NCBI GenBank assembly: GCA_026770705.1
Contig: JANJGN010000150.1
Location: 1,116,001 to 1,180,000 of the forward strand
Origin: Isurus oxyrinchus
Taxonomy: Eukaryota
Length of the DNA stretch: 64,000 bases
Direction: 5' to 3'
Positions 6,245-54,228 of the stretch are shown piece by piece. Within the stretch, counting starts at the first letter, position 1, and each line of letters starts with the position of its first letter. The translations under genes and the position numbers were made by a program. The notes under the pieces were generated by a model that saw nothing but the letters and a program-made list of their open reading frames with translations, ran no database searches and was not told where the DNA came from.

Positions 6245-6290
6245 ATGGGAGAGGTCGGTCTGATATTGATCTTCATCAGCTTGCTGCAAG
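6245..6290 (+). CDS. Gene A coding exon 1: signal peptide MGEVGLILIFISLLQ(G)
   Basis: Strong Kozak aagATGg, hydrophobic 15-mer, phase-1 donor caag|GTAC matching the V-set exon acceptor. Confidence 0.85.
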
Positions 6291-7109: not shown

Positions 7110-7466
7110 GAGTGACGTCAGAGGGATGGTCTATGAAGGCGCTGCCTCGGAGGGCCATCAGCAGCTCTTGTGTGGTTATTCCGTGTAGCTTTGACTTTCC
7201 TTCCCACTCTTACACAGCACTGCACGGAGCTTGGTATAAATATTGGTATAGATGGAAATATACCATCACATACACCAAAGATCCCAATTATGGGATGGCC
7301 ACATTCGTGGGACGTGCTAAAATAATCGGCGACTTGGAAGGGAAGAATTGTTCGGTGAGGATTGACAGTCTCAGAGCTGAAGATAGTGATGTGTATTACT
7401 TTTATGTGGATGTGGAGGGCTACACAGATCACACTTTTACACAACCAGTCCAACTCCAGGTTCTTG
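7110..7466 (+). CDS. Gene A exon: Siglec/MAG-like V-set Ig domain, essential Arg replaced by Tyr
   Basis: ttcAG| and |GTAAGT boundaries, 357 nt, phase 1-1. Motifs CVVIPCSFDFP, HGAWY, FVGRAKIIGDLEGKNCS, YYFYVDVEGYTDHTF. Siglec cysteine pattern (B-E strand pair plus an inter-domain Cys). Confidence 0.92.
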
Positions 7467-9638: not shown

Positions 9639-9926
9639 ATGTTCCAGATAAGCCAGTTATTGTGCTCCTGAAGGATTTACAGGAGGGGACTCCTGCACAT
9701 ATCATCTGTAAATGCCTCGACACCTGCCCTGATAACCACCCCAATCTAACCTGGAGTGAATTGCTGACTTCCTCGGTCAGCACCATCACAGAGAACGGTG
9801 GTGAGGTTTCTGCTCTACTGACCTTTAACCCTTCGTTCAAGCATCATGGACGAACTCTCCGCTGTACCTGTGACTACCCTCAAACCAGCCATCGAGTGGT
9901 CAACTCAGTTACTCTGAGTGTAAAGT
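9639..9926 (+). CDS. Gene A exon: Siglec domain-2 type C2-set Ig
   Basis: tacAG| and |GTAAGT, 288 nt, phase 1-1. DVPDKPVI...CKCLDTCPDNHPNLTW...LTFNPSFKHHGRTLRCTCDYP fits the Siglec/MAG D2 pattern. Confidence 0.92.
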
Positions 9927-11111: not shown

Positions 11112-11369
11112 ATTCTCCTCACAACACGTCTGTCAGGCTGACACGGGAAAAAGGAAAGATGATTTCTCTAAGTTGTTCCAGTGACGGGAATCCAGCAGTC
11201 CACAATTTCACCTGGTTTAAGATCTCCCAAGGCAAGGTGACAAATCTGGTGCTCACTGGTCAAACTATTACAGTTCCTTATGGATTCGATGAGGAAATCT
11301 CCTACTACTGTGAAGCAACAAGTATCCTGGGCAGTTCCCAGTCTCTGCCCATTAAAATTCCCACTGAAT
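11112..11369 (+). CDS. Gene A repeated C2-set Ig exon A1 (intact)
   Basis: 258 nt, phase 1-1, aaAG| and |GTGAGT. YSPHNTSV...SLSCSSDGNPAVHNFTWFK...YYCEATS. Confidence 0.9.
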
Positions 11370-11784
11370 GTGAGTACTTTTTTTATTCATACATGCGATG
11401 AAGGTGTCACTGGCTAGACCAACATTTATTGCCCATCCCAAATTATACTGGAACAGAGAGGCTTAGTGGGCCATTTCAGAGGATATTGAGGAGTCAACCA
11501 CGTTGCTGTGGATCTGGAGTCACATGTAAGGCCAGACCAGGTAAGGACAGCAGATTTCCCTCCCTAAAGGACATTAGTGAACCAGATGGGGTTTTAACGA
11601 CAATTGGCAATGTTTTCATGGTCAACAATAGACTTTCAATTACAGATTCTCATTGAATTGGTTGGAAAGTGGACATTTGAACACTATGGCCACAATTTGT
11701 CCACAATTATCTGTTGCCAGCCAATCAGCACCCTCTTCTCATGCAGTATAATTTGTTCTCCCTTTGAGATTTGGTAATCTTGCA

Positions 11785-11826
11785 ATTCTGTCCTGATGAG
11801 TGAAAGATGAAAAGCTTTGACAGAAT
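11785..11826 (+). ncRNA. Minimal type I hammerhead ribozyme-like motif, repeated in array introns
   Basis: attctgtc-CTGATGA-gtgaaagat-GAA-AAGCTT-t-gacagaat: 8-bp helix I, both core boxes, palindromic helix III. Well-paired copies at 14570, 16261, 19644, 39196, 42583, 44290, 47690. Activity unknown. Confidence 0.65.
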
Positions 11827-12827
11827 GTCTCCTTTTTCACCAATGCTCAGGTTCTGTCCTGCCAAGTGACTGTAAACATCGTCTTCTGTAAATCAAAATC
11901 CTGAATACACTCGTAAATGACTAACATATCATTCCTGGTACACAAATCAGAGAAAGTTAGAATGCAGGTGCAGCATGTGGTTAGGAAGGCAAATGAAACA
12001 TTGGTGTTTATTGCAAGGGAGATTGAGTGTAAAAGTAGAGACGCATGTTACAACTGTACAGGCTATTGGTGAGACTGCATCACGAGTACTGTGTACAGTC
12101 CTGGCTTCTGACATAGAAAAGATGGGCCGAATGCGCAGCTGTAGACTATCTTTAATTCTGTGTAACATTATCTGCTGGTGGGTAATACAGTGCAGTTTGT
12201 ACGTGTGCTAGTGTTGGAGCTGTATGCAGTCCATGATTATATAAAGAGACTATTGAAATCTAGAGTTTAAACCACATGAGTTTGCCCATATTTAATTCAT
12301 TTGCTGATATGGGCAACATTTATTGCCCATCCCTAATTACCCCTTGAGACATTGTCTTGAACCGCTTCACTACATGTGCTGTAGGTACACCCACAGCAAT
12401 GTTAGGCAGGGAGTTCCAGGATTTTGTCCCAGTGATAGTGAAGGAACAGCAATAGATTTCCAAGTCAAGGTGGTGTGTGGCTTGGAGGAGAACTTGCAGG
12501 TGGTGGTGTTCCCATGAATCTGCTGCCCTTGTCCTTCTAGATGTTAGAGGTCACAGGTTTGGAAGGTGCTGCTTAAGGAGCCTTGGTGAGCAGTTGCAGT
12601 GCATCTTGTAGATGGTACACACTGCTGCTACTGTGCGTCGGTGGTGGAGGGAGTGAATGATGAAGATGGTGGGTGGGATGCCAGTCAAGTGGGCTGCTTT
12701 GTCCTGGATGGTGTCGAGCTTCCTGAGTGTTGTTGGAGCTGCACTCATCCCAGCAACTGGAGAGTGTTCCATCACACTCCTGACTTTAGCTCAGTGGTTA
12801 ATGTGTTGATAATTTTGGATTTGAAAG

Positions 12828-12875
12828 AATCTCCTCACAACACGTCTGTCAGGATGACACTGGAAAAAGGAAAGA
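12828..12875 (+). pseudogene. Gene A pseudo-exon A2 (48-nt remnant after a ~650-bp deletion)
   Basis: Acceptor kept. The exon breaks at ggaaaga and joins downstream intron sequence. Donor lost. Splicing in would create TAA at the junction. Confidence 0.9.
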
Positions 12876-13896
12876 ATATTTGAAGAGCTTTGACAGAATG
12901 TCTCCTTTCTCACCAATGCTCAGGTTCTGTGCTGCCAAGTGACTGTAAACATCGTCTTCTGTAAATCAGAATCCTGAATACTCTCTCCAATGACTAACAC
13001 ATCATTCCTGGTACAAGAATCAGAGAACGTTAGTATGCAGGTGCAGCAAGTGGTTAGGAAGGCAAATGGAATGTTGGTGTTTATTGTAAGGGAGCTTGAG
13101 TGTAAAAGTAGGGACACATGTAACAACTGTACAGGCACTGGGTGAGACTGCATCACGAGTACTGTGTACAGTCTTGGCTTCTGACATAGAAAAGATGTGC
13201 CGAATGTGCAGCTGTAGACTACCTGTAATTCTGTGTAACATTACCTGCTGGTGATGAATACAGTGCAGTTTGTACATGTGCTAGTGTTGGAGCTGTATCC
13301 AGTCCATGATTATATAAAGAGACTGTTCAAATCTAGACTTTAAACCTCATGAGTTTGCCCATATTTAGTTCATTCACAGGATGTGGGAGCTGCTGATATG
13401 GGCGACATTAATTGCCCATCCCTAATTACCCCTTGTCCTGACCTGCTGCAGTCCACATGCTGTACGTATATCCACAGTGCTGTTAGGGAGGGAGTTCCAG
13501 GATTTTGACCCAGCGATAGTGAAGGAACGGCCGATATATTTCCAATTCAAGATGGTGAGAGGCTTGGTGGGGAACTTGCAGGTGGCGTTGTTCCCATTTT
13601 CCTGCTGCCCTTGTTCTTCTAGGTGTTAGGGATTGGAAGGTGCTGTTCAAGGAGCCTAGGTGTGCTGTTACATCTTGTAGACGGTACACACTGCTACCAC
13701 TGTGCATTCATGGTGGAGGGAGTGAATGTTGAAGATGGTGGGTGGGATGCCGTTCAAGTGGGCTGCTTTGTCCTGGATGGTGTCCAGCTTCATGAGTGTT
13801 GCTGGAGCTGCACTCATCCCGGCAAATGGAGAGTGTTCCATCACACTCCTGACTTTAGCTCAGTGGTTAATGTGTTGATAATTTTGTATTTGAAAG

Positions 13897-14154
13897 ATTC
13901 TCCTCACAACACGTCTGTCAGGCTGACACGGGAAAAAGGAAAGGTGATTTCTCTAAGTTGTTCCAGTGACGGGAATCCAGCAGTCCACAATTTCACCTGG
14001 TTTAAGATCTCCCAAGGAAAGGTGACGAAACTGGTGCTCGCTGGTCAAACTATTACAGTTCCTTATGGATTCGATGAGGAAATCTCCTACTACTGTGAAG
14101 CAACAAGTATCCTGGGCAGTTCCCAGTCTCTGCCCATTAGAATTCCCACTGAAT
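13897..14154 (+). CDS. Gene A repeated C2 exon A3 (intact)
   Basis: 258 nt, open frame, canonical splice sites. Confidence 0.9.
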
Positions 14155-15594
14155 GTGAGTACTTTTTTTATTCGTTCATGGGATGAAGATCTCACTGGCT
14201 AGACCAACATTTATTGCCCATCCCAAATTACCCTGGAACTGAATGGCTTGCTGGGCCATTTCAGAGGTCATTGAAGAGTCAACCACATCTCTGTGGGTCT
14301 GGACCTGCATGCAGGCCAGACCAGGTAAGGACGGCAGATTTCCCTCCCTAAAGGACATTAGTGACCCTGATGGGTTTTTAATGACAATCGGTAATGTTTT
14401 CATGGTCATCGTTAGAAATTCAATTCCAGGTCCTAATTGAATTGGTTGGCAAGTGGACATTTGACACTTTATCCACAATTTGCCCTCAATTATCTGCTTT
14501 CCAGGCAATCAGCACCACCTCCTCATGCAATCTCGATTGTTGTTCCCTTTGAGATTTGGTATTCTTGCAATTCTGTCCTGATGAGTGAAAAATGAAAAGC
14601 TTTGACAGAATGTCTCCTTTCTCACCAACGCTCAAATTTTTTACTGCCAAGTGACTATAAATATCTTCTTCTGTAAATTCTCCTGAATGCTCTCCCAATT
14701 GACTAATATATAATTTCTGGTACATGAAACATAGAAGGTTCGTATGCAGGTGCAGCAAGTGTTTAGGAAGGCAAATGGAATGTTGGTGTTTATTGCAAGG
14801 GAGATTAAGTAAAAGTATTAGGGATGTAGGGTGGAGGTGTACAGGTTCTTTTTGAGACTGCATCAGGAGTACTGTGTATAGTCTTGGCTTCTGACATAGA
14901 AAAGATGGGCTGAATGCGCAGTTGTAGACTACCTGTAATACTGTGTAACATTATCTGCTGGTGAGGAATACAGTGCAGTTTGTACTTGTGCTAGTGTTGG
15001 AGCTGTATCCAGTCCATGATTATATAAAGAGACTATTCAAATCTAGATTTTAAACCTCATGAGTTTGCCCATATTTAATTCATTTGATGATATGGGCAAC
15101 ATTTATTAGCCATCCTTAATTACCCCATGAGCCACTGTATTCAACTGCTGCAGTCCATGTGCTGTAGGTACACCCACAGCAATGTTAGGGAGGGAGTTCC
15201 AGGATTTTGACCCAGTGACAGTGAAGGAATGGCGATAGATTTCCAAGTCAGGATGGTGAGTGGCTTGCAGGGGATCTTGCAGGTGGCATTGTTCCTACCT
15301 ATCTGCTCCCCTTGTCCTACTTGATGTTAGGGTTTGGAAGGTGCTGTTCAAGGAGCCTTGGTGAGCTGTTGCAGTGCATCTTGTAGATGGTACACACTGC
15401 TGCCACTGTGCACCAGGGAGTGAATGTTGACTATGGTGGGTGGGGTACCGTTCAAGTGGGATGCTTTGTCCTGGATGGTGTCGAGCTTCCTGAGTGTTGC
15501 TGGAGCCGCACTCATCCCGGCAACTGGAGAGTGTTCCATCACACTCCTGACTTTAGCTCAGTGGTTAATGTGTTGATAATTTTGGATTTGAAAG

Positions 15595-15853
15595 ATTCTC
15601 CTCATAACACGTCTGTCAGGATGACACTGGAAAAAAGGAAAGATGATTTCTCTAAGTTGTTCCAGTGACGGGAATCCACCAATCCACAATTTCACCTGGT
15701 TTAAGAGCTCCCAAGGAAAAGTGATGAATTTGGTGCTCGCTGGTCAAACTATTACAGTTCCTTCTGGATTTGATGAGGAAATCTCCTACTACTGTGAAGC
15801 AACAAGTATCCTGGGCAGCTCCCAGTCTCTGCCCATTAGAACTCCCACAGAAT
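15595..15853 (+). pseudogene. Gene A repeated C2 exon A4 with +1 frameshift
   Basis: 259 nt. A6 instead of A5 run at 15631-15636 gives a stop at 15666-15668. Could be a homopolymer sequencing error. Confidence 0.65.
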
Positions 15854-17293
15854 GTGAGTAATTTTTTTATTCGTTCATGGGATGGAGGTGTCACTGACTA
15901 GACCAACATTTATTGCCCATCCCAAGTTACCCTGGAACAGAGTGGCTTGGTGGGCCATTTCAGAGGGTATTGAAGAATCAACCACATTGCTGGAGTCACA
16001 GGTACGCCAGAGCAGGTAAGGACAGCAGATTTCCCTCCCTAAAGGACATTAGTGACCAAGATGGGGTTTTAACGACAATCAGCACTGTTTTCATGGTCAT
16101 CATTAGACTTTCAATTCCAGATTCTAATTGAATTGGTTGGCAAGTGGACATTTGACCACTTTGGCCACAATTGGTCCACAATTATCTGTTGCCAGCTAAT
16201 CAGCACCCTCTTCTCATGCAGTATCAATTGTTGTTTCCTTTGAGATTTGGTATTCTGGCAATTCTGTCCTGATGAGTGAAAGATGAAAAGCTTTGACAGA
16301 ATGTCTCCTTTCTCACCAATGCTCAGGTTCTGTGCTGCCAAGTGATTGTAAACATCATCTTCTGTAAATCAGAATCCTGAATACTCTCTCCAATGACTAA
16401 CACATCATTCCTGGTACACGAATCAGAGAACGTTAGTATGCAGGTGCAGCAAGTGGTTAGGAAGGCAAATGGAACGTTGCTGTTTATTGTAAGGGAGCTC
16501 GCGTGTAAAAGTAGGGACGCATGTTACAACTGTACAGGCTCTTGGTGAGTCTGCATCACGAGTACTGTGTACAGTCTTTGATTCTGACATAGAAAAGATG
16601 GGCCAAATGTGCAGCTGAAGGCTACCTGTAATACTGGGTAATGTTATCTGCTGGTGAGGAATACAGTGCAGTTTCTACTTGTGCTAGTGTTGGAGCTGTA
16701 TCCAGTCCATGATTATATAAAGAGACTATTCAAATCTCGATTTTACACCTCATGAGTTTGCCCATATTTAATTCATTCACAGGATGTGGGAGCTGCTGAT
16801 ATGGGTAACATTTATTGCCTATCCTTAATTACCCCTTGTCCTGACCTGCTGCAGTCCATGTGCTGTACGTATACCCACAGTGCTGTTAGGGAAGGGGTTC
16901 CAGGATTTTGACCCAGCGATAGTGAAGGAACGGCCGATACATTTCCAATTCAGGATGGTGAGAGGCTTGGCGGGGAACTTGCAGGTGGCATTGTTCCCAT
17001 TTTTCTGCTGCCCTTGTTCTTCTGGTATTAAGGAATGGAAGGTGCTGTTCAAGGAGCCTTGGGGAGCTGTTGCAGTGCATCTTGTAGATGGTACACACTG
17101 GACATTCATGGTGGAGAGAGTGAATGTTGTAGATTGTGGGTGGGATGACGTTCAAGTGGGCTGTTTGTCCTGGATGGTGTCGAGCTTCCTGAGTGTTGCT
17201 GGAGCCGCACTCATCCAGGCAACTGGAGAGTGTTCCATCACACTCCTGACTTTAACTCAGTTATTAATGTGTTGATAATTTTGTATTTGAAAG

Positions 17294-17551
17294 ATTCTCC
17301 TCACAACACGTCTGTCAGGATGACACTGGAAAAAGGAAAGATGATTTCTCTAAGTTGTTCCAGTGAAGGGAATGCAGTAGTCCACAATTTCACCTGGTTT
17401 AAAATCTCACAAAGAAAAGTGACGAATCTGGCACTCGCTGGTCAAACTATTACAGTTCCTTATGGATTTGAAGAGCAAATCTCCTACTACTGTGAAGCAA
17501 CAAGCATCCTGGGCAGTTCCCAGTCTCTGCCCATTAGAATTCCCTCTGAAT
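17294..17551 (+). CDS. Gene A repeated C2 exon A5 (intact)
   Basis: 258 nt, open frame, canonical splice sites. Confidence 0.88.
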
Positions 17552-18975
17552 GTGAGTACTTTTCTTCATTTGTTCATGGGATGGAGGTGTCACTGGCTAG
17601 ACCAACATTTATTGCCCATCCCAAATTACCCTGGAACTGAATGGCTTGCTGGGCCATTACAGAGTGTATTGAAGAGTCAACCACATCTCTGTGGGTCTGG
17701 ACTTGCATGTAGGCCAGACCAGGTAAGGACAGCAAATTTCCCTCCCTAAAGAACATTAGTGACCCAGATAGGTTTTTAACGACAATCGGTAATGTTTTCA
17801 TGGTCATCGTTAGAATGTCAATTCCAGATTCTCATTGAATTGGTTGGCAAGTGGGCATTTGACACTTTATCCACAATTTGTCCACAATTATCTGCTTGCC
17901 AGCTAATCAGCACATTCTCCTCATGCAGTATCAATTGTTGTTCCCTTTCAGATTTGGTATTCTTGCAATTCTGATGAGTGAAAGATGAAAAGCTTTGACA
18001 GAATGTCTCCTTTCTCACCAATGCTCAGGTTCTGTGCTGCCAAGTGACTATAAACATCGTCTTCTGTAAATCAGAATCCTGAATACTCTCTCCAATGACT
18101 AACACATCATTCCTGGTACATGAATCATAGAAAGTTAGTATGCAGGTGCAGCAAGGTGTTAGGAAGGCAAATGGAACGTTGGTGTTTATTGTAAGCAAGC
18201 TTGAGTGTAAAAGTAGGGATGCATGTTACAACTCTATAGGCTCTTGGTGAGACTGCATCAGGAGTACTGTGTACAGTCTTGGCTTCTGACATAGAAAAGA
18301 TGGGCCGAATGCGCAGCTGTAGACTACTTGTAATTCTGTGTAACATTATCTGCAGGTGAGGAATACAGTGCAGTCTGTACATGTGCTAGTGTTGGATCTG
18401 TATCCAGTCCATAATTATATAAAGAGACTATTCAATTCTAGATTTTAAACCACATGAGTTTGCCCATATTAAATTCATTTGCTGATATGGGCAACATTTA
18501 TTGCCCATCCCTAATCACTCCATGTGCTGTAGGTACACCCACAGCAATGTTAGGCAGGGAGTTCCAGGATTATGACCCAGTGACAGTGAAGGAAATGACG
18601 ATAGATTTCCAACTCAGGATGGTGTGTGGATTGGAGGGGAACTTGCAGGTGGTTGTGTTCCCATGAACAGATGCCCTTGTCCTTCTAGATGTTAGAGGTG
18701 ATAGGTTTGGAAGGTGCTTTTCAAGGAGCCTTGGTGAGCTGTTGCAGTGCATCTTGTAGATGGTACACACTGCTGCTACTGTGCATTCAAGGTGGAGGGA
18801 GTGAATGTTGAAGATGGTGGGTGGGATGCCAATCAAGTGGGCTGCTTTGTCCTGGATGGTGTCGAGCTTCATGAGTGTTGTTGGAGCTGCACTCATCCCG
18901 GCAACTGGAGAGTGTTCCATCACACTCCTGACTTTAGCTCATTGGTTAATGTATTGATAATTTTGTATTTGAAAG

Positions 18976-19233
18976 ATTCTCCTCGCAATACGTCTGTCAG
19001 GATGACATGGGAAAAAGGAAAGATGATTTCTCTCAGTTGCTCCAGTGACGGGAATCCAGCAGTCCACAATTTCACCTGGTTTAAGATCTCCCAAGGAAAG
19101 GTCATTAATCTGACACTCACTGGTCAAACTATTATGGTTCCTGATGGAGTCGATGAGGAAATCTCCTACTACTGTGAAGCAACAAGTATCCTGGGCAGTT
19201 CCAAGTCTCTGCCCATTAGAATTCCCACAGAAT
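18976..19233 (+). CDS. Gene A repeated C2 exon A6 (intact)
   Basis: 258 nt, open frame, canonical splice sites. Confidence 0.88.
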
Positions 19234-23227: not shown

Positions 23228-23324
23228 GTAGAGACTGCAGTAAATGGACAGTAGGATTGCTCACGGCTGGGATCATGTTGAGTGTTTTCCTGGCTGGAAT
23301 CTTCATCTTCATCTGTGTGAGAAA
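23228..23324 (+). CDS. Gene A transmembrane exon: CRDCSKWTVGLLTAGIMLSVFLAGIFIFICVRK
   Basis: tttttacAG| and |GTAAGT, phase 1-2. About 23 hydrophobic residues followed by a basic stop-transfer signal. Confidence 0.88.
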
Positions 23325-32155: not shown

Positions 32156-32201
32156 ATGGGAGAGGTCGGTCTGATATTGATCTTCATCAGCTTGCTGCAA
32201 G
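32156..32201 (+). CDS. Gene B coding exon 1: signal peptide, identical to gene A
   Basis: MGEVGLILIFISLLQ(G), phase-1 donor at 32202. Confidence 0.85.
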
Positions 32202-33021: not shown

Positions 33022-33378
33022 GAGTGACGTCAGAGGGATGGTCTATGAAGGCGCTGCCTCAGAGGGCCATCAGCAGCTCTTGTGTGGTTATTCCGTGTAG
33101 CTTTGACTTTCCTTCCCACTCTTACACAGCACTGCACGGAGCTTGGTATAAATATTGGTATAGATGGAAATATACCGTCACATACACCAAAGATCCCAAT
33201 TATGCGATGGCCACATTCGTGGGACGTGCTAAAATAATCGGCGACTTGGAAGGGAAGAATTGTTCGGTGAGGATTGACAGTCTCAGAGCTGAAGACAGTG
33301 ATGAGTATTACTTTTACGTGGATATGGAGGGCTACACAGATCACACTTTTACACAACCAGTCCAACTCCAGGTTCTCG
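33022..33378 (+). CDS. Gene B Siglec/MAG-like V-set exon, essential Arg replaced by Tyr
   Basis: 357 nt, phase 1-1. By eye, 8 nt differences from gene A (5 non-synonymous, 3 synonymous). Confidence 0.92.
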
Positions 33379-36800: not shown

Positions 36801-37058
36801 ATTCTCCTCGCAAGACATCTGTCAGGATGACACTGGAAAAAGGAAAGATGATTTCTCTAAGTTGTTCTAGTGATGGGAATCCAGCAGTCCACAATTTCAC
36901 CTGGTTTAAGATCTCCCAAGGCAAGGTGACAAATCTGGAGCTTGCTGGTCAAACTATTACAGTTCCTTACGGATTTGAAGAGGAAATCTCCTACTACTGT
37001 GAAGCAACAAGTATCCTGGGCAGTTCCCAGTCTCTGCCCATTAGAATTCCCACTGAAT
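36801..37058 (+). CDS. Gene B repeated C2 exon B1
   Basis: 258 nt, open, AG/GT, phase 1-1. Confidence 0.9.
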
Positions 37059-38521
37059 GTGAGTAATTTTTTTATTCATTCATGGGATGGAGGTGTCACT
37101 GGCTAGACCAACATTTATTGCCCATCCCAAATTACCCTGGAACAGAGTGGCTTGCTGGGCCATTTCAGAAGTCATTGAAGAGTCAACCACATTGCTGTGG
37201 GTCTGGAGTCATATGTAGGCCAGACCAGGTAAGGACGGCAGATTTCCCTCCCTAAAGGACATTAGTGACCCAGATGGGGTTTTAACGACAATCGGCAATG
37301 TTTTCATGGTCATCATTAGACTTTCAATTCCAGATTCTAATTGAATTGGTTGGCAAGTGGACATTTGACCACTTTGGCCACAATTGGTCCACAATTGTCT
37401 GTTTACCTGTCAATCAGCACCCTCTACTCATGCAGTATCAATTGTTGTTCCCTTTGAGATTTGGCATTCTTGCAATTCTGCCCTGATGAGTGAAAGATGA
37501 AAAGCTTTGACAGAATGTCTCCTTTCACACCAATGCTCAGGTTCTGTGCTGCCAAGTGACTGTAAACATCGTCTTCTGTAAATCAGAATCCTGAATACTC
37601 TCTTAAATGACTAACACATCATTCCTGGTACATGAATCGTAGAAAGTTAGTATGCAGGTGCAGCAAGGTGTTAGGAAGGCAAACCTGGAATGTTGGTGTT
37701 TATTGCAGAGCTTGAGTGTAAAAGTAGGGACGTATCATATTCTACAACCGTACAGGCTCTTGGTGAGATTGCATCAAAAATACTGTGTACAGTCTTGGCT
37801 TCTGACATAGAAAAGATGGGCCAAATGTGCAGCTGAAGGCTACCTGTAATACTGTGTAACATTTTCTGCTGGTGAGGAACACAGTGCAGTTTGTACTTCT
37901 GCTAGTGTTGGAGCTGTATCCAATCCATGATTATATAAAGAGACTATTCAAATCTAGACTTTAAACCTCATGAGTTTGCCCATATTTAATTCATTCACAG
38001 GATGTGGGAGCTGCTGATATGGGCAACATTTATTGCCCATCCCTAATTACCCTTTGTCCTGAACTGCTGCAGTCCATGTGCTGAACGTATACCCACAGTA
38101 CTGATAGGGAGGGAGTTCCAGGATTTTGACCCAGCAATAGTGAAGGAATTGCGATAGATTTCCAAGTCAAGATGGTGAGTGGCTTGGTGGGGAACTTGCA
38201 GGTGGCGTTGTTCACATTTTTCTCCTGCCCTTGTTCTCCTAGGTGTTAGGGTTTGGAAGTTGCTGTTAAAGGAGCCTTGGTAAGCAGTTGTAGTGCATCT
38301 TGTAGATGGTACACACTGCTGCCACTGTGCATTCATGGTGGAGGGAGTGAATGTTGAAAATGATGGGTGGGATGCCGCACAAGCGGGCTGCTTTGTCCTG
38401 GATGGTGTCGAGTTTCTTGAGTGTTGTTGGAGCCACACTCATCCAAGCAAGTGGAGAATATTCCATCACACTCCTGACTTTAGCTCAGTGGTTAATGTGT
38501 TGATAATTTTGTATTTGAAAG

Positions 38522-38779
38522 ATTCTCCTCACAATACGTCTGTCAGAATGACACTGGAAAAAGGAAAGGTGATTTCTCTAAGTTGTTCCAGTGACGGGAA
38601 TCCAACAGTCCACAATTTCACCTGGTTTAAGATCTCCCAAGGCAAGGTGACAAACCTGGATCTCGCTGGTCAAACTATTACAGTTCCTTATGGATTTGAT
38701 GAGGAAATCTCCTACTACTGTGAAGCAACAAGTATCCTCGGCAGTTCCCAGTCTCTGTCCATTAGAATTCCCACTGAAT
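38522..38779 (+). CDS. Gene B repeated C2 exon B2
   Basis: 258 nt, open, AG/GT, phase 1-1. Confidence 0.9.
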
Positions 38780-40219
38780 GTGAGTACTTTTTTTATTCGT
38801 TCATGGGATGAAGATCTCACTGGCTAGACCAACATTTATTGCCCATCCCAAATTACCCTTGAACTGAGTGGCTTGCTGGGCCATTTCAGAGGTCATTGAA
38901 GAGTCAACTACATCTCTGTGGGTCTGGAGTCACATGTAGGCCAGACCAGGTAAGGATGGCAGATTTCCCTCCCTGAAGGACATTAGTGACCGAAATGGGT
39001 TTTTAACGACAATTGGCAATGATTTCAAGGTCATTGTAAGACTTTCAATTCCAGATTCTAATTGAATTGGTAGGCAAGTGGACATTTGACCACTTTGGCC
39101 ACAATTTGTCCATAATTATCTGCTTGCCAGCCAATCAGCACATTCTCCTCATGCAGTATAAATTGTTGTTCCATTTGAGATTTGGTATTCTTGTAATTCT
39201 GTCCTGATGAGTGGAAGATGAAAAGCTTTGACAGAATGTCTCCTTTCTCACCATTGCTATGGTTTTCTTCTGCCAAGTGACAATAAATATTGTCTTCTGT
39301 AAATCAGAATCCTGAAAACCTTCTTAAATTACTGACACAACGTACCTGGTGCAGCAAGTGCTTAGGAAGACAAATGAAACATCGGTGTTTATTGCAAGGG
39401 AGCTTGGCTGTAAAAGTAGGGATGTATACAATACTGCAACTGTACAGGCTCTTGGTGAGACTGCATCAGCAGTACTGTGTACAGTCTTGGCTTCTGACAT
39501 AGAAAAGATGGGCCGAGGGTGCAGCTGAAAGCTACCTGTAATTCAGTGTAACATAATCTGCTGGTGAGGAATATAGGGCAGTTTGTACATCTGCTAATGT
39601 TGGAGCTTTATCCAGTCCACGATTATATAAAGAGTCTATTCATATTTAGATTTTGAATCTCATGCGCTTGCTCATATTTAATTCATTCACAGGATGCAGG
39701 CGTTGCTGATCTCGGCAACATTTAGTGCCCGTCCCTAATTACCCATTGAGCCGTTGTCTTGAACGGCTGCAGACCATGTGCTGTAGGTACACAGACACTG
39801 CTTTTAGGGAGGGAGTTCCAGGATTTTGACACAGCAACAGTGAAGGAATGGCAATAGATTTCCAAGTCAGGATGGTGAGTGACTTGGAGTGGATCTTGCA
39901 GGTGGCGTTGCTCCCTTCTTACTGCTGTCCTTGTCCTTCTAGATGTTAGGGTTTAGAAGGTGCTGTTCAAGGAGCCTTGGTGAGCTGTTGCAGTGCATCT
40001 TTTAGATGGTACACACTGCTGCCACTGTGCACTCACAGTGGAGGGAGTGAATGTTGAAGATGATGGGTGGGATGCCGCTCAAGTGGGCTGCTTTGTCCTG
40101 GATGGTGTTGAGCTTCTTGAGTGTTGTTGGAGCTGCACTCATCCAGGCAAATGAAGAGTATTCCATCACACTCCTGACGAGCTCAGTGATTAATGTGTTG
40201 ATAATTTTGTATTTGAAAG

Positions 40220-40477
40220 ATTCTCCTCACAACACGTCTGTCAGGATGACACTGGAAAAAGGAAAGGTGATATCTCTAAGTTGTTCCAGTGACGGGAATC
40301 CTGCAGTCCACAATTTCACCTGGTTTAAAATCTCCCAAGGAAAGGTGACGAATCTGGCGCTCGCTGGTCAAACTATTACAGTTCCTTATGGATTCGAAGA
40401 GGAAATCTCCTACTACTGTGAAGCAACAAGTATCCTTGGCAGTTCCCAATCTCTGCCCATTAGAATTCCCACAGGAT
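40220..40477 (+). CDS. Gene B repeated C2 exon B3
   Basis: 258 nt, open, AG/GT, phase 1-1. Confidence 0.9.
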
Positions 40478-41916
40478 GTGAGTATATTTTTTATTCTTCA
40501 TGGGATGGAGATGACACTGGCTAGACCAACATTTATTGACCATTCCAAATTACCCTTGAACTGAATGGCTTACTGGCCATTTCAGAGGGTATTCATGAGT
40601 CAACCACGTTGCTGTGAGTCTGGAGTCACATGTAGGCCAGACCAGGTAAGAACGGCAGATTTCCCTCCCTAAAGGACATTAGTGACCCAGACGGGGTTTT
40701 AATGACAATCGGTAATGTTTTCATGGTCTTCGTTAGACTTTCAATTCCAGATTCTCATTGAATTGGTTGGCAACTGGACATTTGACACTTGGGCCACAAT
40801 TTGTCCACAATTATCTGCTTGCCAGCCAATCAGCACACTCTTCTCATGCAGTATAAATTGTTGTTCCTTTTGAGATTTGGTATTCTTGCAATTCTGTCCT
40901 GATGAGTGAAAGATGAAAACCTTTTACAGAATGTATCCTTTCTCACCAACTTTCAAGTTTAGTACTGCCAAGTGACTATAAATATATTCTTCTGTAAATC
41001 AGAATCTTGAATGCTCTCCCAATTGACCAACAATCATTCCTGGTACATGAATCATAGAAAGTTAGTATGCAGGTGCAGCAAGGTGTTAGGAAGGCAAATG
41101 GAACGTTGGTGTTTATTGCAAGGGACCTCAAGTGTAAAAATAGGGACACATGTTACAACTGTACAGACTCTTGGTGAGACTGCATCAGCAGTACTGTGTG
41201 CAGTCTTGGCTTCTGACATAGAAAAGATGGGCCGAATGCGCAGTTGTAGATTAGCTGTAATTCTGTGTAACATTATCTGCAGGTGAGGAATACAGTGCAG
41301 TTTGTATGTGTGCTAGTGTTGGAGCTGTATCCAGTCCAGATTATATAAAAAAAAAATCAAATTTAGATTTTAAACCTCATAAGTTTCCCCAAATTTAATT
41401 CATTTGATGATATGGGCAACATTTATTGCCCCTCCCTAATTACGCCATGAGCCGTTGTCTTCAACTGCAGCAGTCCGTGTGCTGTAGGTAAACCCACAGC
41501 ACGGTTAGGCAGGGAGTCCAGGATTTTGTCCCAGCGACAGTGTAGGAATGGCAATAGATTTCCAAGTCAGGATGGTGAGTAATTTGGAGGGGAACTAGCA
41601 GGTGGTGGTGTTCCCATGAGTCTTCTGTCCTTGTCCTTCTAGATGTTAGAGGTCACAGGCTTGGAAGGTTCTATTAAAGGAGCCTTGGTGAACAAGTGCA
41701 TCTTGTGGAGGGTGATGCCACTGAGTGTCAGCGCTGGAGGGAGTGAATGTTGAAGATGGTGGGTGGATGCTGTTCAAGTGGGCTGCTTTGCCCTGGTTGG
41801 TGTTGAGCCTCTTGAGTGTTGTTGGAGCTGCACTCTTCCAGGCAAGTGGAGAGTGTTCCATCACACTCCTGACTTCAGCTCAGTGTTTAATGTGTTGATA
41901 ATTTTGTATTTCAAAG

Positions 41917-42174
41917 ATTCTCCTCGCAATACATCTATCAGGATGACACTGGAAAAAGGAAAGATGATTTCTCTAAGTTGTTCCAGTGATGGCAATCCAG
42001 CAGTCCACAATTTCACCTGGTTTAAGATCTCCCAAGGCAAGGTGACGAATCTGGCACTCACTGGTCAAACTATTACAGTTCCTTATGGATTTGATGAAGA
42101 AATCTCCTACTACTGTGAAGCAACAAGTATCCTGGGCAGTTCCCAATCTCTGCCCATTAGAATTCACACTGAAT
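41917..42174 (+). CDS. Gene B repeated C2 exon B4
   Basis: 258 nt, open, AG/GT, phase 1-1. Confidence 0.9.
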
Positions 42175-43615
42175 GTGAGTAATTTTTTTATTCGTTCATG
42201 GGATGAAGGTCTCACTGGCTGGACCAACATTTATTGCTCATCCCAAATTACCCTGGCACACAGTGGTTTGCTGGGCCATTTCAGAGGGTATTGAAGAGTC
42301 AACCACTTTGCTGTGGGTCTGGAGTCACATGTAGGCTAGACCAGGGAAGGACAGCAGATTTCTCTCCCTAAAGGACATTAGTGACCCAGACGGGGTTTTA
42401 ATGACAATCGGCAATGTTTTCATGGTCATCGTTAGACTTTCAATTCCAGATTCTAATTGTTTGGCAAGTCAAAATTTGACATTAGGGCTACAATTTTCCA
42501 CAATTATCTGTTGCCAGCTAATCAGCACCCTCTTCTCATGCAGTATAAATTGTTGTTCCTTTTGAGATTTGGCATTCTTGCAATTCTGTCCTGAGGAGTG
42601 AAAGATGAAAAGCTTTGACAGATTGTCTCCTTTCTCACCAACGCTCAAGCTTTGTGGTGTCAAGCAGCTGTAAATATCATCTTCTGTAAATCAGAGTCCT
42701 GAATACCTTCTGAAATGACTAACACGTCAATCCTGGTACATGAATAATAGAAAGTTAGTATGCAGGTGCAGCAAGTGATTAGGAAGGCAAGTGGAATGTT
42801 GGTGTTTATTGCAATGGAGCTTCAGTGTAAAAGCTGGGACACATGTAACAACTGTACAGGCTGTTGGTGAGACTGCATCAGGAGTACTGTGTACAGTCTT
42901 GCCTTCTGACATAGAAAAGATCGGCGAATGCGCAGCTGTAGACTACCTGTAATTCTATGTAACATTATCTGCAAGTGAGGAATACAGTGCAGTTTGTATG
43001 TGTGCTAGTGTTGGAGCTGCATCCAGTCCATGATTATATAAAGAGACTATTCAAATCTAGATCTTAAACCTCGTGAGTTTGCCCACATTTAATTCATTTT
43101 CTGATATTGGCAACATTTAGTGCCCATCCCTAATTACCCCTTGAGCCTGAACTGTTGCAGCTCATGTGCTGTAGGTATACCCACAATGCTGTTAGGGAGG
43201 GATTTCCAGGATTTTGACTCACAACACTGAAGGAATGGTGATAGATTTTCAAATCAGGATGGTAACTGCCTTGGAGGGTAACTTGCAGGTGGAGGTGTTC
43301 CATTTATCTGCTGCCCTTGTCCTTCTAGATGTTAGAGGTCATGGGTTTGGAAGGTGCTGTCTTAGGAGCCTTGGTGAGTTGTTGCAGTGCATCTTGTAGA
43401 CGGTACACACTGCTGCCAATGTGCATTCATGGTGGAGGGAGTGAATGTTGAAGATGGTGGGTGGGATGCCGATCAATCCGGCTGCTTTGTCCTGGATGGT
43501 GTCGAGCTTCCTGAGTGTTGTTGGAGCTGCACTCATCTCAGCAACTAGTGAGAATTCCATCACACTCCTGACTTTAGCTCAGTGGTTAATGTGTTGATAA
43601 TTTTGGATTTGAAAG

Positions 43616-43873
43616 ATTATCCTCACAACATGTCTGTCAGGATGACACTGGAAAAAGGAAAGATGATTTCTCTAAGTTGTTCCAGTGACGGGAATCCAGC
43701 AGTCCACAATTTCACCTGGTTTAAGATCTCCCAAGGCAAGGTGACGAATCTGGCACTCGCTGGTCAAACTATTATGGTTCCTTATGGATTTGAAGAGGAA
43801 ATCTCCTACTACTGTGAAGCAACAAGTATCATGGGCAGTTCCCAGTCTCTGCCCATTAGAATTCCCACAGAAT
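43616..43873 (+). CDS. Gene B repeated C2 exon B5
   Basis: 258 nt, open, AG/GT, phase 1-1. Confidence 0.9.
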
Positions 43874-45317
43874 GTGAGCAATTTTTTTTATTTGTTGATG
43901 GGATGGTGGTCTCACTGGCTAGACCAACATTTATTGCCCATCCCAAATTACCCTTGAACTGAGTGGCTAACTGGGCCAATTCGGAGGGAATTGAAGTGTC
44001 AGCCACATCACTCTGGGTCTGGAGTCACATGTTGGCTAGACCCGGTAAGGACGGCAGATTTCCCTCCCTGAAGGACATTAGTGAACCAAATGGGTTTTTA
44101 ACGACAATTGGCAATGTTTTCGTGGTCATTGTTTGAAGTTTAATTCAAGATTCTAACTGAATTGTTTGACAAGTGGACATTTGACAATTTGGCCACAATT
44201 TGTCCACAATTATCTGCTTAACAGCCAATCAGCAAACTCTTCTCATGCATATAAATTGTTGTTCCTTTTGAGATTTGGTATTCTTGCTTTTCTGTCCTGA
44301 TGAGTGAAAGATGAAAAGCTTTGACAGAATGTCTCCTGTCTCACCAATGCTTAAGTTTAGTACTGCCAAGTGACTATAAATATCTTCTTCTGTAAACCGG
44401 AATCCTGAGTGCTTTCCCAATTGACTAACACATCATTCCTGGTACATGAATCATAGGAAGTTAGTATGCAGGTGCAGCAAGTGGTTAGGAAGGCAAATGG
44501 GACATAGGTGTTTATTGCAAGGGAGCTCGAGTGTAAAAGTAGGGACACATGTAACAACTGTACAGGCTCTTGGCGAGACTGCAGCAGGAGTACTGTGTGC
44601 AGTCTTGGCTTACGACATAGAAAAGATGGGTCGAATGTGCAGTTGTAGATTACCTGTAATTCTGTGTAACATTATCTGCAGGTGAGGAATACAGTGCAGT
44701 TTCTACGTGTGCTAGTGTTGGAGCTGTATCCAGTCCACGATTATATGAAGAAATCTAGATTTTAAACCTCATGAGTTTCCCCATATTTAAAACATTTGAT
44801 GATATGGGCAACATTTATGGCCCATCCCTAATTACCGCTTGAGCCGTTGTCTTCAACTGCTGCAGTCCATGTGCAGTAGGTACACCCACTATTAGAGTGT
44901 GAGGTCCAAGATTTTGACCCAGTGATAGTGTAGGAATGGCAATAGATTTCCAAGTCGGGATAATGAATGACTTGGAGAGGAACTTACAGTTGGTGGTGTT
45001 CCCATGAGTATTCTTTCCTTGTCCTTCTAGATGTTAGAGGTCACAAGCTTGGAAGGTGCTGTTAAAGGAGCCTTGGTGAGCAGTTGCAGTGCATCTTGTA
45101 GAGGGTACACACTGATGCCACTGTGCGTTCATGGTGGAGGGAGTGAATGATGAAGTTGATGGGTGGGATGCCAGTCAAGTGGGCTGCTTTGTCCTGGATG
45201 GTGTCGAGCTTCCTGAGTGTTGTTGGAGCTGCACTTTTCCAGGCAAGTGGAGAGTATTCCATCACAATCCTGACTTTAGCTCAGTGAATAATTTGTTGTT
45301 AATTTTGTATTTGAAAG

Positions 45318-45575
45318 ATTCTCCTCACAATACGTCTGTCAGGATGACACTGGAAAAAGGAAAGATGATTTCTCTAAGTTGTTTCAGTGACGGGGATCCA
45401 GCAGTCCACAATTTCACCTGGTTTAAGATCTCCCAAGGAAAGATGATGAATTTGGCACTCGCTGGTCAAACTATTACAGTTCCTTATGGATTCGATGAGG
45501 AAATCTCCTACTACTGTGAAGCAACAAGTATTCTGGGCAGTTCCCAGTCTCTGCCCATTAGAATTCCCACTGAAT
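45318..45575 (+). CDS. Gene B repeated C2 exon B6
   Basis: 258 nt, open, AG/GT, phase 1-1. Confidence 0.9.
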
Positions 45576-47019
45576 GTGAGTAATTTTTTTATTCATTCAT
45601 GGGATGGAGGTGCCACTGGCTAGACCAACATTTATAGCCCATCCCAAATTACCCTGGAACAGAATGGCTTGCTGGCCATTTCAGAGGGTATTGATAAGTT
45701 AACCACATAGCTGTGGGTCTGGAGTCATATGTAGGCCAGACCAGGTAAGGACAGCAGATTTCCCTCCCTAAAGGACATTAGTGACCCAGATGGGGTTTTA
45801 ACGACAATCGGCAATGTTTCCATGGTCATCGTTAGACTTTCAATTCCAGATTCTCATTGAATTGGTTGGCAAGTGGACATTTGACCACTTTGGCCACAAT
45901 TTGTCCACAATTATCTGCTTGCCAGCTAATCAGCACATTCTCCTCATGCAGTATAAATTGTTGTTCCCTTTGAGATTTGGTATTCTTGCAATTCTGTCCT
46001 GATGAGTGAAAGATGAAAAGCTTTGATAGAATGTCTCCTTTCTCACCAATGCTAAGGTTCTGTGCTGCCAAGTGACTGTAAACATCGTCTTCTGTAAATC
46101 AGAATGCTGAATACTCTCTCAAATGACTAACAAATTATTCCTGGTACATGAATCATACAAAGTTAGTATGCGGTTTGGAAAGCAAATGGAACGTTGGTGT
46201 TATGGCAAACAAACTTGAGTGTAAAAGTAGAGACATATACTATACTACAACTGTACAGGGTCTTGGTGAGACTGCATCAGGAATACTGTGTACAGTCTTG
46301 TCTTCTGACATAGAAAAGATGGGCCAAAAGTGCAGCTGAAGGCTAGCTGTAATTCTGTATAACATTATCTGCAGGTGAGGAATACAGTGCAGTTTGTATG
46401 TGTGCTAGTGTTGGAGCTGTATCCAGTCCATGATTACATAAAGAGACTATTCAAATCTAGAGTTTAAACCTCATGAGTTTGCTCATTTTTGATTCATTCA
46501 CAGGATGTGAGACCTGCTGATATGGGTAATATTTATTGCCCATCCCTAATTACCCCTTGTCCTGAACTGCTGCAGTCCATGTGCTGTACGTATACCCACA
46601 GTGCTGTTAGGGAGGGAGTTCCAGGATTTTGACCCAGCGATAGTGAAGGAAAGGCCGATACCTTTCCAATTCAGGATGGTGAGAGGCTTGGTGGGCAACT
46701 TGCAGGTGGTGTTGTTCCCATTTTTCTGCTGCCCTTGTTCTTCTTAGGGTTTGGAAGGTGCTGTTCAAGGAGCCTTGGTGAGCTTTTGTAGTGCATCTTG
46801 TAGATGGTACACAATGCTGCCCATGTGCGTTCATGGTGGAGGGAGTGAATGTTGAAGATGGTGGGTGGGATGCCATTCAAGTGGGCTGATTTGCCCTGGA
46901 TTGTGTTGAGCTTCTTGAGTGTTGTTGGAGCTGCACTTTTCCAGGCAAATGGAAAGTATTCCATCACACTCCTGACTTTAGCTCAGTGGTTAAAGTGTTG
47001 ATAATTTTGTATTTGAAAG

Positions 47020-47277
47020 ATTCTCCTCACAACACGTCTGTCAGGATGACACTGGAAAAAGGAAAGATGATTTCTCTAAGTTGTTTCAGTGATGGGAATC
47101 CAGAAGTCCACAATTTCACCTGGTTTAAGATCTCCCAAGGCAAGGTGACGAATCTAGCGCTCGCTGGTCAAACTATTACGGTTCCTTATGGATTTGAAGA
47201 GGAAATCTCCTACTACTGTGAAGCAACAAGTATCCTGGGCAGTTCCCAGTCTCTGCCCATTAGAATTCCCACAGGAT
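47020..47277 (+). CDS. Gene B repeated C2 exon B7
   Basis: 258 nt, open, AG/GT, phase 1-1. Confidence 0.9.
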
Positions 47278-48836
47278 GTAAGTAATTTTTTTATTCTTCA
47301 GGGGATGGAGATGTCACTGGCTAGACCAACATTTATTGCCCATCCCAAATTACACTTGAACTGAATGGCTTGCTGGGCACTTCAGAGGGTATTCATGAGT
47401 GAACCTCATTGCTGTGGGTCTGGAGTCACATGTAGGCCAGACCAGGTAAGGACGGCAGATTTCCCTCCCTAAAGGACATTAGTGACCCAGATGGGGTTTT
47501 AACGACAATCGGCAATGTTTTCATGGTCTTCGTTAGACTTTCAATTCCAGATTCTCATTGAATTGGTTGGCAAGTCGACATTTGACATTTTATCCACAAT
47601 TGGTCCACAATTATCTGTTGCCAGCTAATCAGCACCCTCTCCTCATGCAGTATAAATTGTTGTTCCCTTTGAGATTTGGTATTCTTGTAATTCTGTCCTG
47701 ATGAGTGAAAGATGAAAAGCTTTGACAGAATGTCTCCTTTCTCATCAATAGCTCAGGTTCTGCGCTGCCAAGTGACTGTAAACATCGTCTTCTGTAAATC
47801 AGAGTCCTGAATACTCTCTCAAATGACTAACACATCATTCCTGGTACATGAATCGTAGAAAGTTAGTATGCAGGTGCAGCAAGGTGTTAGGAAGGCAAAC
47901 CTGGAATGTTGGTGTTAATTGCAGAGCTTGAGTGTAAAAGTAGGGACGTATCATATTCTACAACCGTACAGGCTCTTGGTGAGATTGCATCAAAAATACT
48001 GTGTTAGGAAGGCAAATGGAACGTTGGTGTTTATTGTAAGCAAGCTTGAGTGTAAAAGTAGGGACGCATGTTACAACTCTATAGGCTCTTGGTGAGACTG
48101 CATCAGGAGTACTGTGTACAGTCTTGTTTTCTGACATAGAAAAGATGGGGCTGAATATGCAGCTGTAGACTACCTGTAATTCTGTGTAACATTATCTGCA
48201 AGTGAGGAATACAGTGCAGTCTGTACATGTGCTAGTGTTGGAGCTGCATCCAGTCCATGATTATATAAAGAGAGTATTCAAATCTAGATCTTAAACCTCA
48301 TGAGTTTGCCCACATTTAATTCATTTTCTGATATTGGCAACATTTAGTGCCCATCCCTAATTACCCCTTGAGCCTGAACTGTTTCAGCTCATGTGTTGTA
48401 GGTGTACCCACAATGCTGTTAGGGAGGGATTTCCAGGATTCTGACTCAGCGACGCTGAAGGACTGGTTTTAGATTTCCAAATCAGAATGGTGACTGGCTT
48501 GGAGGGTAACTTGCAAGTGGAGGTGTTCCCATTTATCTGCTGCCCTTGTCCTTCTAGATGTTAGAGGTCAAGGGTTTAGAAGGTGCTGTTCAAGGTGCCT
48601 TGGTGAGTTGTTGCAGTGCATCTTGTACATGGTACACAGTGCTGCCACTGTGCATTCATGGTGGAGGGAGTGAATGTTGAAGATGGGATGCCACTCAAGT
48701 CAGCTGCTCAGCCTGGATGGTGTTGAACTTCCTGAGTGTTATTGGAGCTGTACTCATCCAGGCAACTGGAGAGAATTCCATCACACTCCTGACTTTAGCT
48801 CAGTGGTTAATGTGTTGATAATTTTGGATTTGAAAG

Positions 48837-49094
48837 ATTCTCCTCACAACACGTCTGTCAGGCTGACACGGGAAAAAGGAAAGGTGATTTCTCTAAGTTG
48901 TTCCAGTGACGGGAATCCAGCAGTCCACAATTTCACCTGGTTTAAGATCTCCCAAGGCAAGGTGACGAATCTGGCACTCGCTGTTCAAAATATTACAGTT
49001 CCTTATGGATTTGAAGAGGAAATCTCCTACTACTGTGAAGCAACAAGTATCCTGGGCAGTTCCCAGTCTCTGCCCATTAGAATTCCCACTGAAT
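48837..49094 (+). CDS. Gene B repeated C2 exon B8
   Basis: 258 nt, open, AG/GT, phase 1-1. Confidence 0.9.
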
Positions 49095-50546
49095 GTGAGT
49101 ACTTTTTTTTATTTGTTGATGGGATGGAGGTCTCACTGGCTAGACCAACATTTATTGCCCATCCCAAATTACCCTTTAACTGAGTGGCTTGCTGTGCAAT
49201 TTCGGAGGGTATTGAAGTGTCAACCACATCACTCTGGGTCTGGAGTCACATGTTAGCTAGACCCGGTAAGGACGGCAGATTTCCCTCCCTGGAGGACATT
49301 AGTGGACCAAATGTATTTTAACAACAATCGGCAATGTTTTCGTGGTCAGTTAGTATTTTAATTGCAGATTCTAATTGAATTATTTGACAAGTGGACACTT
49401 GACACTTTGGCCACCATTTGTCCACAATTATCTGCTTGCCAGCCAATTAGCACACACTATTCATGCAGTATCAATTGTTCCTTTTGAGATTTGGTATTCT
49501 TGCAATTCTGTTCTGATGAGTGAAAGATGAAAAGCTTTTACAGAACATCTCCTTTTACACCAATGCTCAAGTTCAGTACTGCCAAGTGACTATAAATATC
49601 TTCTTCTGTAAATCAGAATCCTGAATACTCTCTCAAATGACCAACACATCATTCCTGGTACATGAATCATAGAAAGTTAGTATGCAGGTGCAGCAAGTGG
49701 TTAGGAAGGCAAATGGAACGCTGGTGTTTATTGCAAGGGAGCTTGAATGTAAAAGTAGGGACGTATGTAACAACTGTACAGGCTCTTGGTGAGACTGCAT
49801 CAGGTGTACTGTGTACAGTCTTGGCTTCTGACATAGAAAAGATGGGTCTGAATGTGCAGCTGTAGACTACCTGTAATTCTGTGTAACATTATCTGCAGGT
49901 GAGGAATACAGTGCAGTTTGTACATGTTATATTGTTGGAGCTGTATCCAGTCCATGATTATATAAAGAGACTATTCAAATCTAGATTTTAAACCTTATGA
50001 GTTTCCCCATATTTAAAACATTTGATGATATGGGCAACATTTATGGCCCATCTCTAATTACCCCTTGAGCCGTTGTCTTCAACTGCTGCAGTCTATGTGC
50101 AGTAGGTACACCCACAGTGCAGTTAGGCAGTGAAATCCAGGATTTTGGCCCAGTGACAGTGTAGGAATGGCAATAGATTTCCAAGTCAGGATGGTGATGA
50201 TTTGGAGGGGAACTTGCAGGTGGTGGTGTTCCCATGAGTCTTCTGTCCTTGTCCTTCTAGATGTTAGAGGTCACAGATTTGGAAAGTGCTGTTAAAGGAG
50301 CCTTGGTGAGCAGTTGCAGTGCATCTTGTAGATGGTACACACTGCTGCCACTGTGCATCGGCGGTGGAGAGAGTGAATGTTGAAGATGGTGGGTGGATGC
50401 CGTTCACGTGGGATGCTTTGTCCTGGATGGTGTCGAGCCTCTTGAGTTTTGTTGGAGTTGCACTCATCCAGGCAAGTGGAGAGTGTTCCATCACACTCCT
50501 GACTTTAGCTCAGTGTTTAATGTGTTGATAATTTTGTATTTCAAAG

Positions 50547-50804
50547 ATTCTCCTCGCAATACATCTATCAAGATGACACTGGAAAAAGGAAAGATGATTT
50601 CTCTAAGTTGTTCCAGTGACGGGAATCCAGCAGTCCACAATTTCACCTGGTTTAAGATCTTCCAAGGCAAGGTGACGACTCTGGTGCTCACTGGTCAAAC
50701 TATTACAGTTCCTTATGGATTTGATGAGGAAATCTCCTACTACTGTGAAGCAACAAGTATCCTGGGCAGTTCCCAGTCTCTGCCCATTAGAATTCCCACT
50801 GAAT
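50547..50804 (+). CDS. Gene B repeated C2 exon B9
   Basis: 258 nt, open, AG/GT, phase 1-1. Confidence 0.9.
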
Positions 50805-52264: not shown

Positions 52265-52522
52265 ATTCTCCTCGCAATACATCTGTCAGGATGACACTAG
52301 GAAAAGGAAAGATGATTTCTCTAAGTTGTTCCAGTGACGGCAATCCAGCAGTCCACAATTTCACCTGGTTTAAGATCTCCCAAGGCAAGGTGACGAATCT
52401 GGCACTCGCTGGTCAAACTATTACAGTGCCTTATGGATTTGATGAGGAAATCTCCTACTTCTGTGAAGCAACAAGTATCCTGGGCAGTTCCCAATCTCTG
52501 CCCATTAGAATTCACACTGAAT
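52265..52522 (+). CDS. Gene B repeated C2 exon B10
   Basis: 258 nt, open, AG/GT, phase 1-1. Confidence 0.9.
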
Positions 52523-53970: not shown

Positions 53971-54228
53971 ATTCTCCTCACAACACGTCTGTCAGGATGA
54001 CACTGGAAAAAGGAAAGATGATTTCTCTGAGTTGTTCCAGTGACGGGAATCCAGCAGTCCACAATTTCACCTGGTTTAAGATCTCCCAAGGCAAGGTGAC
54101 GAATCTCGCGCTCGCTGGTCAAACTATTGCAGTTTCTTATGGATTCGATGAGGAAATCTCCTACTACTGTGAAGCAACAAGTATCCTGGGCAGTTCCCAG
54201 TCTCTGCCCATTAGAATTCCCACTGAAT
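53971..54228 (+). CDS. Gene B repeated C2 exon B11 (last)
   Basis: 258 nt, open, AG/GT. Downstream intron leaves the unit consensus just after the donor. Confidence 0.9.

Follow-up and report, generated by a model that had tools for sequence, protein, structure and literature searches.

The Arg that forms the canonical salt bridge in Siglecs is lost from both V-set domains of two tandem Siglec-like genes of Isurus oxyrinchus, and a Tyr stands in its place. The genes, termed here A and B, lie on the forward strand of a 64,000-nucleotide stretch of contig JANJGN010000150.1 (positions 1,116,001 to 1,180,000), which we refer to as the window and to which coordinates refer unless stated otherwise. 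Loss of this Arg is already known, and the known cases are young and usually read as escape or decay; what is new here is an old Tyr lineage that is fixed in all sampled sharks and rays together with a fixed loop. We propose that these old shark and ray receptors bind a conserved, non-sialic self ligand via an aromatic surface and that their tails would signal inhibition, a reading of the predicted proteins that we judge about equally likely to be right or wrong. A bolder version, in our opinion somewhat more likely wrong than right, is that the sugar pocket has been rebuilt since before the shark-ray split as a fixed aromatic surface for another conserved ligand, i.e., a stable switch of ligand class and not a passing loss; in its boldest form, the receptor would also fill the place of MAG. 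If true, this would be a case of the Siglec fold being repurposed for another ligand and kept.

The Tyr is residue 98 of the V domain and is encoded by TAT in gene A (7403..7405, +) and by TAC in gene B (33315..33317, +), in agreement with the first-pass annotation of this DNA. In gene A, positions 7403-7432 translate as YVDVEGYTDH, and the wider segment 7394-7441 reads YYFYVDVEGYTDHTFT. The same annotation gave the F strand as YYFYVDVEGYTDHTF; this is correct for gene A, but gene B has Met for Val (YVDMEG), and the form common to both V exons is YYFYVD(V/M)EGYTDHTF. When the V exon was compared with solved structures using phmmer, the top match was MAG (5LFR, E 2e-14), followed by sialoadhesin and Siglec-5. 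Tyr98 fell opposite the F-strand Arg (MAG R118, sialoadhesin R97) with no gaps, as had been claimed, and His107 (gene A, 7430..7432, +) fell opposite the G-strand Tyr (MAG Y127); the profile version of the alignment agrees at both positions. R118 and Y127 are the names that these MAG residues bear in PMC5150538. An AlphaFold model of the V domain built from 72 alignment rows (pLDDT 89.3), which supersedes an earlier model from 12 rows (pLDDT 62), places Tyr98 on strand 93-102 and fits sialoadhesin and MAG best (Foldseek TM 0.84-0.88). On MAG, 114-115 residues of the model superpose with Z 18.8 and an rmsd of 1.4-1.5 Å, and the structural register taken from the end offset (model 118 = MAG 138) again puts residue 98 at MAG 118. 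There is no other Arg on the F strand: residues 89-118 contain neither Arg nor Lys, which excludes a misalignment.

The replacement of Arg by Tyr takes two or three base changes, consistent with the earlier minimum of at least two. Sequencing error is excluded, as contigs from four runs (three studies) have only TAT or TAC at this codon, and Tyr is present in all 16 full-length copies found in the genome and in database relatives. The first-pass annotation also relied on the sharing of the Tyr by both genes. Both do have it, but their V exons differ at 8 of 354 bases; thus, with exons that are 98% identical, the two Tyr codons record one event and not two independent losses.

Siglec V domains have a characteristic cysteine pattern, with a B-E intra-sheet pair, an extra Cys towards D2, and no F-strand Cys. 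The V-set exon of gene A (7110..7466, +) appears to be of this type: its only cysteines are Cys20, Cys25, and Cys80, which are invariant in the 72 rows and align to those of MAG, and Phe97 occupies the position of the F-strand Cys of other V domains. The order of domains is also that of the Siglec family: a V-set domain at the N-terminus, then more Ig domains, a transmembrane (TM) span, and a tail. At the essential F-strand Arg, a defining feature of the family, there is Tyr98, and for this reason we call the genes Siglec-like rather than Siglecs. Among known systems, the closest are MAG (Siglec-4; 5LFR, 5LFV) and sialoadhesin (Siglec-1; 1QFO), the top matches in both sequence and fold (E 2e-14, Z 18.8, rmsd 1.4-1.7 Å), which share the cysteine pattern; MAG also has an F-G loop of equal length and resembles gene B in the membrane-proximal Ig domain and the start of the TM segment. 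On the other hand, the shark domain differs from both in the Tyr at R118/R97, in having only 31% and 24% identity to them, in its C-C' loop, and in a stalk of 1-11 repeated Ig exons, and it differs from MAG in the missing WxxW motif and in having no supported grouping with it in the tree. Database labels such as "MAG-like", "CD22-like", or "sialoadhesin-like" on Tyr-type shark proteins should not be taken to mean that sialic acid is bound.

The Tyr is present in 27 of 27 relatives in the database, which represent 14 genera of sharks and rays; the change is not local to genes A and B, and its age was underestimated in the first-pass annotation. Proteins of Carcharodon and Cetorhinus are 90-97% identical, which fits a lamniform shark. 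In a tree of 57 chosen V+D2 rows, the 12 rows with Tyr fall into a single clade (support 100/99), within which eight shark rows are arranged by order and four ray rows lie outside them. Because this clade spans sharks and rays, the sampled sequences date the change to before the shark-ray split, approximately 250-300 million years ago. No holocephalan protein was among the matches listed. As the sister of the Tyr clade, neither MAG, nor the Arg-type shark expansion, nor the Trp-type domains of bony fish received support, and a common origin with the latter is thus not supported by the tree. An aromatic replacement at this site is not unique, since Trp, Tyr, and His are frequent there: the essential-Arg column of 524 domains contains Arg in 235, Trp in 155, Tyr in 45, and His in 32 cases, and the non-Arg residues come mostly from multi-V fish proteins. 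Such bony-vertebrate multi-V Siglec-like proteins with Trp, His, or Tyr at the Arg site (e.g., P0027, P0030, P0184) resemble the shark receptors in that their lineages are old and carry an aromatic residue there; however, they occupy separate branches of the tree, are approximately 30% identical, and have a multi-V architecture. In the bony-fish family (P0027-P0083, P0184, and others), which is widespread and has a relative in a frog, several domains have Trp, and the last domain has His, Tyr, Lys, or Arg at the Arg site. A description of the Tyr-type shark lineage was not found in the accessible text, mostly open-access and without supplements, of the literature searched (including PMC7226832, PMC13358205, PMC8455134, PMC7916940, and PMC8672417).

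The age of the clade bears directly on the possibility that the Tyr marks a function lost only recently, or a pathogen-escape allele, in a decaying duplicate, comparable to human Siglec-XII. There are primate precedents, namely R122C in human Siglec-XII, Arg to His in ape Siglec-5/14, and Arg to Trp in human SIGLEC17P (PMC6288428, PMC7379906), as well as an Arg-to-Tyr change in one orangutan SIGLEC14 (PMC7379906). Like the shark receptors, these Siglecs lack the essential Arg and have signalling motifs, and decay is in fact visible in the dead exons of gene A and in approximately 100 truncated genome copies. However, the primate losses are young, species-limited, and often polymorphic or located in decaying genes, whereas the shark-ray Tyr is fixed across sharks and rays and accompanied by its own invariant loop. 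Its presence in 14 genera, in one clade and with open frames, the intact gene B, and the splicing of the shared V exon to its neighbours largely refute a recent loss, which we regard as barely credible.

The strongest case for a conserved ligand, as opposed to decay, comes from the near fixation of the C-C' loop. This loop is a known specificity element and is normally variable (PMC12953582). In gene A, it comprises residues 44-50, Y-W-Y-R-W-K-Y (7241..7261, +), of which Y44, W45, W48, K49, and Y50 are invariant; the 39 invariant columns of 17 Tyr-type rows further include Y54, Y60, Y96, and Y98. Identity in these rows is 81.8% for the loop versus 70.6% for the whole domain, compared with 25.4% versus 62.3% in 14 Arg-type shark domains, a contrast that is inflated because the latter set mixes paralogues as well as first and second V domains and has its insertions dropped. 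The F-G loop, which is acidic in the Tyr-type domain, is alike in the two groups (56.3% Tyr-type versus 55.6% Arg-type). Its residues 105-107 vary, and we therefore dropped the idea, prompted by a resemblance, of a TIM-type metal/lipid pocket in this loop. In comparison with rays, identity is 65-70% for the V domain, 54-58% for D2, and 45-51% for the stalk repeat; in comparison with orectolobiform (carpet) sharks, the V domain (64-72%) is less conserved than the stalk repeat (71-78%). That the altered surface has been preserved for so long speaks for a binding role that was kept.

The course of events that we envisage starts with a presumably ancestral Arg, which would have changed to Tyr once, before sharks and rays separated. 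Y44, W45, W48, Y50, Y96, and Y98, on the C, C', and F strands, would then provide a hydrophobic or stacking patch on what is the sugar face in MAG; these residues are invariant, and the alignment to MAG and sialoadhesin suggests that they come together in one exposed patch. Alternatively, the aromatic residues could be structural instead of ligand-facing. Given the fixed binding loop, the ligand may be a slowly changing host molecule, most likely a cell-surface protein, a membrane lipid, or a neutral glycan, with the class being a guess. A complex prediction for a homodimer formed via the aromatic face, in which the alignment was not used, scored 0.02 and weighs neither for nor against such a dimer. 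The fixed loop also argues against the reading that the receptor senses a conserved microbial pattern instead of self, as binding loops usually become diverse in receptors under pathogen pressure. Furthermore, the back end was read or placed for 12 of the 16 genes with the Tyr head, and no activating partner with a charged TM segment was seen among these. Such a receptor would fit the location of the gene in an expanded and shuffled immune-type cluster, and Siglec-5/14 are known to bind the GBS beta protein without sialic acid (PMC6288428); overall, we consider microbial recognition improbable.

The inference in the first-pass annotation that these receptors have left sialic acid for another ligand is only partly borne out. 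On the one hand, the Arg salt bridge is lost and the surface is conserved. On the other hand, a departure from sialic acid is not proven: ganglioside binding that is independent of the Arg or needs it less is reported for Siglec-6 and, in earlier work, for MAG and Siglec-11 (PMC12953582, PMC10122656), and all 28 Tyr-type rows have Lys49 in the C-C' loop, with Lys43 and Lys56 nearly invariant. The Tyr-type domain might thus bind sialylated glycolipids in a non-canonical way, with the carboxylate held by Lys49 or the backbone and the Trp/Tyr loop inserted in the membrane. This would resemble Siglec-6, whose V domain depends little on Arg122 for ganglioside binding and places a Lys and a Trp (K126/W127) at the membrane (PMC12953582). 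The invariant W48-K49 pair makes Lys49 a candidate replacement for the Arg, MAG, which binds gangliosides, is among the best matches in sequence and fold, and the G-strand register is kept, with H107/T108 opposite Y127/T128. The G-strand change from Tyr to His reported earlier is present in genes A and B but is not fixed (His in 23 and Tyr in 5 of 28 Tyr-type rows). However, Siglec-6 keeps and partly uses its Arg, which it needs for free glycans, and its Lys-Trp pair lies just after the F strand, 4-5 positions after the Arg (PMC12953582), whereas W48-K49 is in the C-C' loop; the acidic F-G loop also speaks against such binding. In MAG, the mutants R118A, Y127A, and T128A all lose GT1b-liposome binding (PMC5150538), and mutation of the Arg abolishes liposome binding of Siglec-1, -5, -7, -9, and -10 (PMC10122656). 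Non-canonical glycolipid binding, the main rival of our reading, is therefore, in our assessment, unlikely but to be taken seriously. Whether for this or for the non-sialic self ligand that we prefer, the Tyr-type domain offers a clean test system, with its Arg-type neighbours in the cluster as controls.

The back ends of the two genes bear on how ligand binding might be transmitted. The earlier claim of intact frames and an inhibitory tail has to be qualified. Gene B, whose frame is intact, consists of exon 1 (32156-32201), the V exon (33022-33378), the D2 exon (35308-35595), eleven open 258-bp Ig exons (36801..54228), a membrane-proximal Ig exon similar to MAG domain 5 (55527-55832), a TM exon with an uncharged span (57585-57705), and a first cytoplasmic exon (61918-62050), all on the + strand; the exon that ends the gene, which encodes DLYANC and SVYGNL, begins just past the window, at contig position 1180615. 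The frame is open over 1401 aa, AG/GT ends flank each of the 17 in-window exons, and SVYGNL matches the ITIM signature given in PMC7226832. In gene A, by contrast, the frame is open (716 aa) only when two dead exons are skipped, and the tail is different. Its + strand exons are exon 1 with the signal peptide (6245..6290) and D2 (9639..9926), both joined to the V exon in contigs, repeated 258-bp Ig exons (11112..19233; those starting at 11112, 13897, 17294, and 18976 are open), a TM exon whose span is without a charged residue (23228..23324), and cytoplasmic exons at 24190-24271 and 25193-25441 with an ITIM-like LLYANI and an ITSM-like TEYTLI. The dead C2 Ig exons are a truncated one (12828-12880) and one with a +1 frameshift (15595-15853), and both defects are probably real, since a copy upstream of gene A has the identical two. 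TEYTLI fits the ITSM consensus, and LLYANI, which ends in Ile, fits only the wider ITIM consensus. Joins at the predicted sites (exon 1-V, V-D2, or both) occur in contigs of four runs (three studies), which are presumed to be RNA runs and whose contigs are not attributable to a single gene copy.

Both genes thus share with inhibitory Siglecs an uncharged TM segment and motifs of ITIM or ITIM-like type, even though they differ in their back ends, that of gene B being MAG-like and gene A having another TM segment and tail. In the genome, the Tyr head is found on three back ends: the A type in four genes (by coordinates), the B type in two, and a third type in all 6 genes fetched for it, 2 of which look damaged. 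Because all three back ends carry Tyr-motif tails and an uncharged TM segment in the genes read, ligation would be expected to recruit SH2 phosphatases, by analogy with inhibitory Siglecs.

The MAG-like back end of gene B also raises the possibility that the receptor takes the part of MAG in elasmobranchs and serves in neural adhesion. Besides the domain-5-like Ig domain and the similar TM start, this idea draws on a frog MAG V domain, whose best genome matches are Tyr-type exons (36-38%; four other MAG-type V domains give 52-53%), and on a genome search with MAG domains 3-4, which returned nothing. Likewise, no canonical MAG exon was found in the genome with two tetrapod MAG queries and a full-length one under a stricter filter; an empty search is not proof of absence. 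However, the Tyr clade is not united with MAG in the tree (support 0.30 in another tree), and Arg-type shark proteins match MAG about equally and share the domain-5-like Ig domain. Moreover, the WxxW C-mannosylation motif at the start of MAG D1 (PMC5150538) is missing, with W6 followed by S-M-K. A role as MAG's stand-in is therefore very improbable.

The genome search with the V domain returned 947 candidates, of which 150 were scored; these comprise 16 full-length near-copies, 103 rows of near-copies that end early, and 31 distant paralogues. Within these 150, Tyr is present in 16 of 16 full-length copies. Some of these may be uncollapsed haplotypes, since contigs C150 and C121 repeat the A-B spacing. 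Among the distant paralogues, 20 of the 31 were fetched, and the essential-Arg site is occupied by Arg in 16 and by Gly in 4 (L034, L035, L039, L040), the latter being a separate loss in a group of Arg-type paralogues. The Arg-type genes share the cluster with Tyr-type genes, and sialic-acid sensing would therefore be covered by other genes. Next to Tyr-type genes, frameshifted V exons of the Arg type are followed by a TM exon that contains an internal Arg (L064, L067, L070, L073, L079), and one lone Arg-bearing V exon lies outside the cluster (L059, C8:88360955-88361293) and is sialoadhesin-like by eye. A pattern search of the genome did no better than the control, and a search of short proteins gave no hit.

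The early-ending copies (approximately 100, on contigs C52, C71, C121, C150, C189, and others; e.g., L017-L030) outnumber the intact ones by approximately 6:1, and all 14 that were fetched end directly ahead of the Tyr codon and run into a stop. The DNA joined to them resembles what we take to be a decayed LTR-retrotransposon gag; Pfam found no domain in it. The truncation junction is present in one contig of run X1.

In the window, a 1.7-kb unit containing one 258-bp Ig exon has been tandemly amplified, to 6 units in gene A and 11 in gene B; stalk length varies with the number of units, which goes down to a single one in orthologues from other sharks. The intron of gene A between 19700 and 22200 contains an insert with long frames on both strands, which is probably a transposon remnant, and the intron that follows the TM exon of gene B contains a 37-bp minisatellite array (57730-60790).
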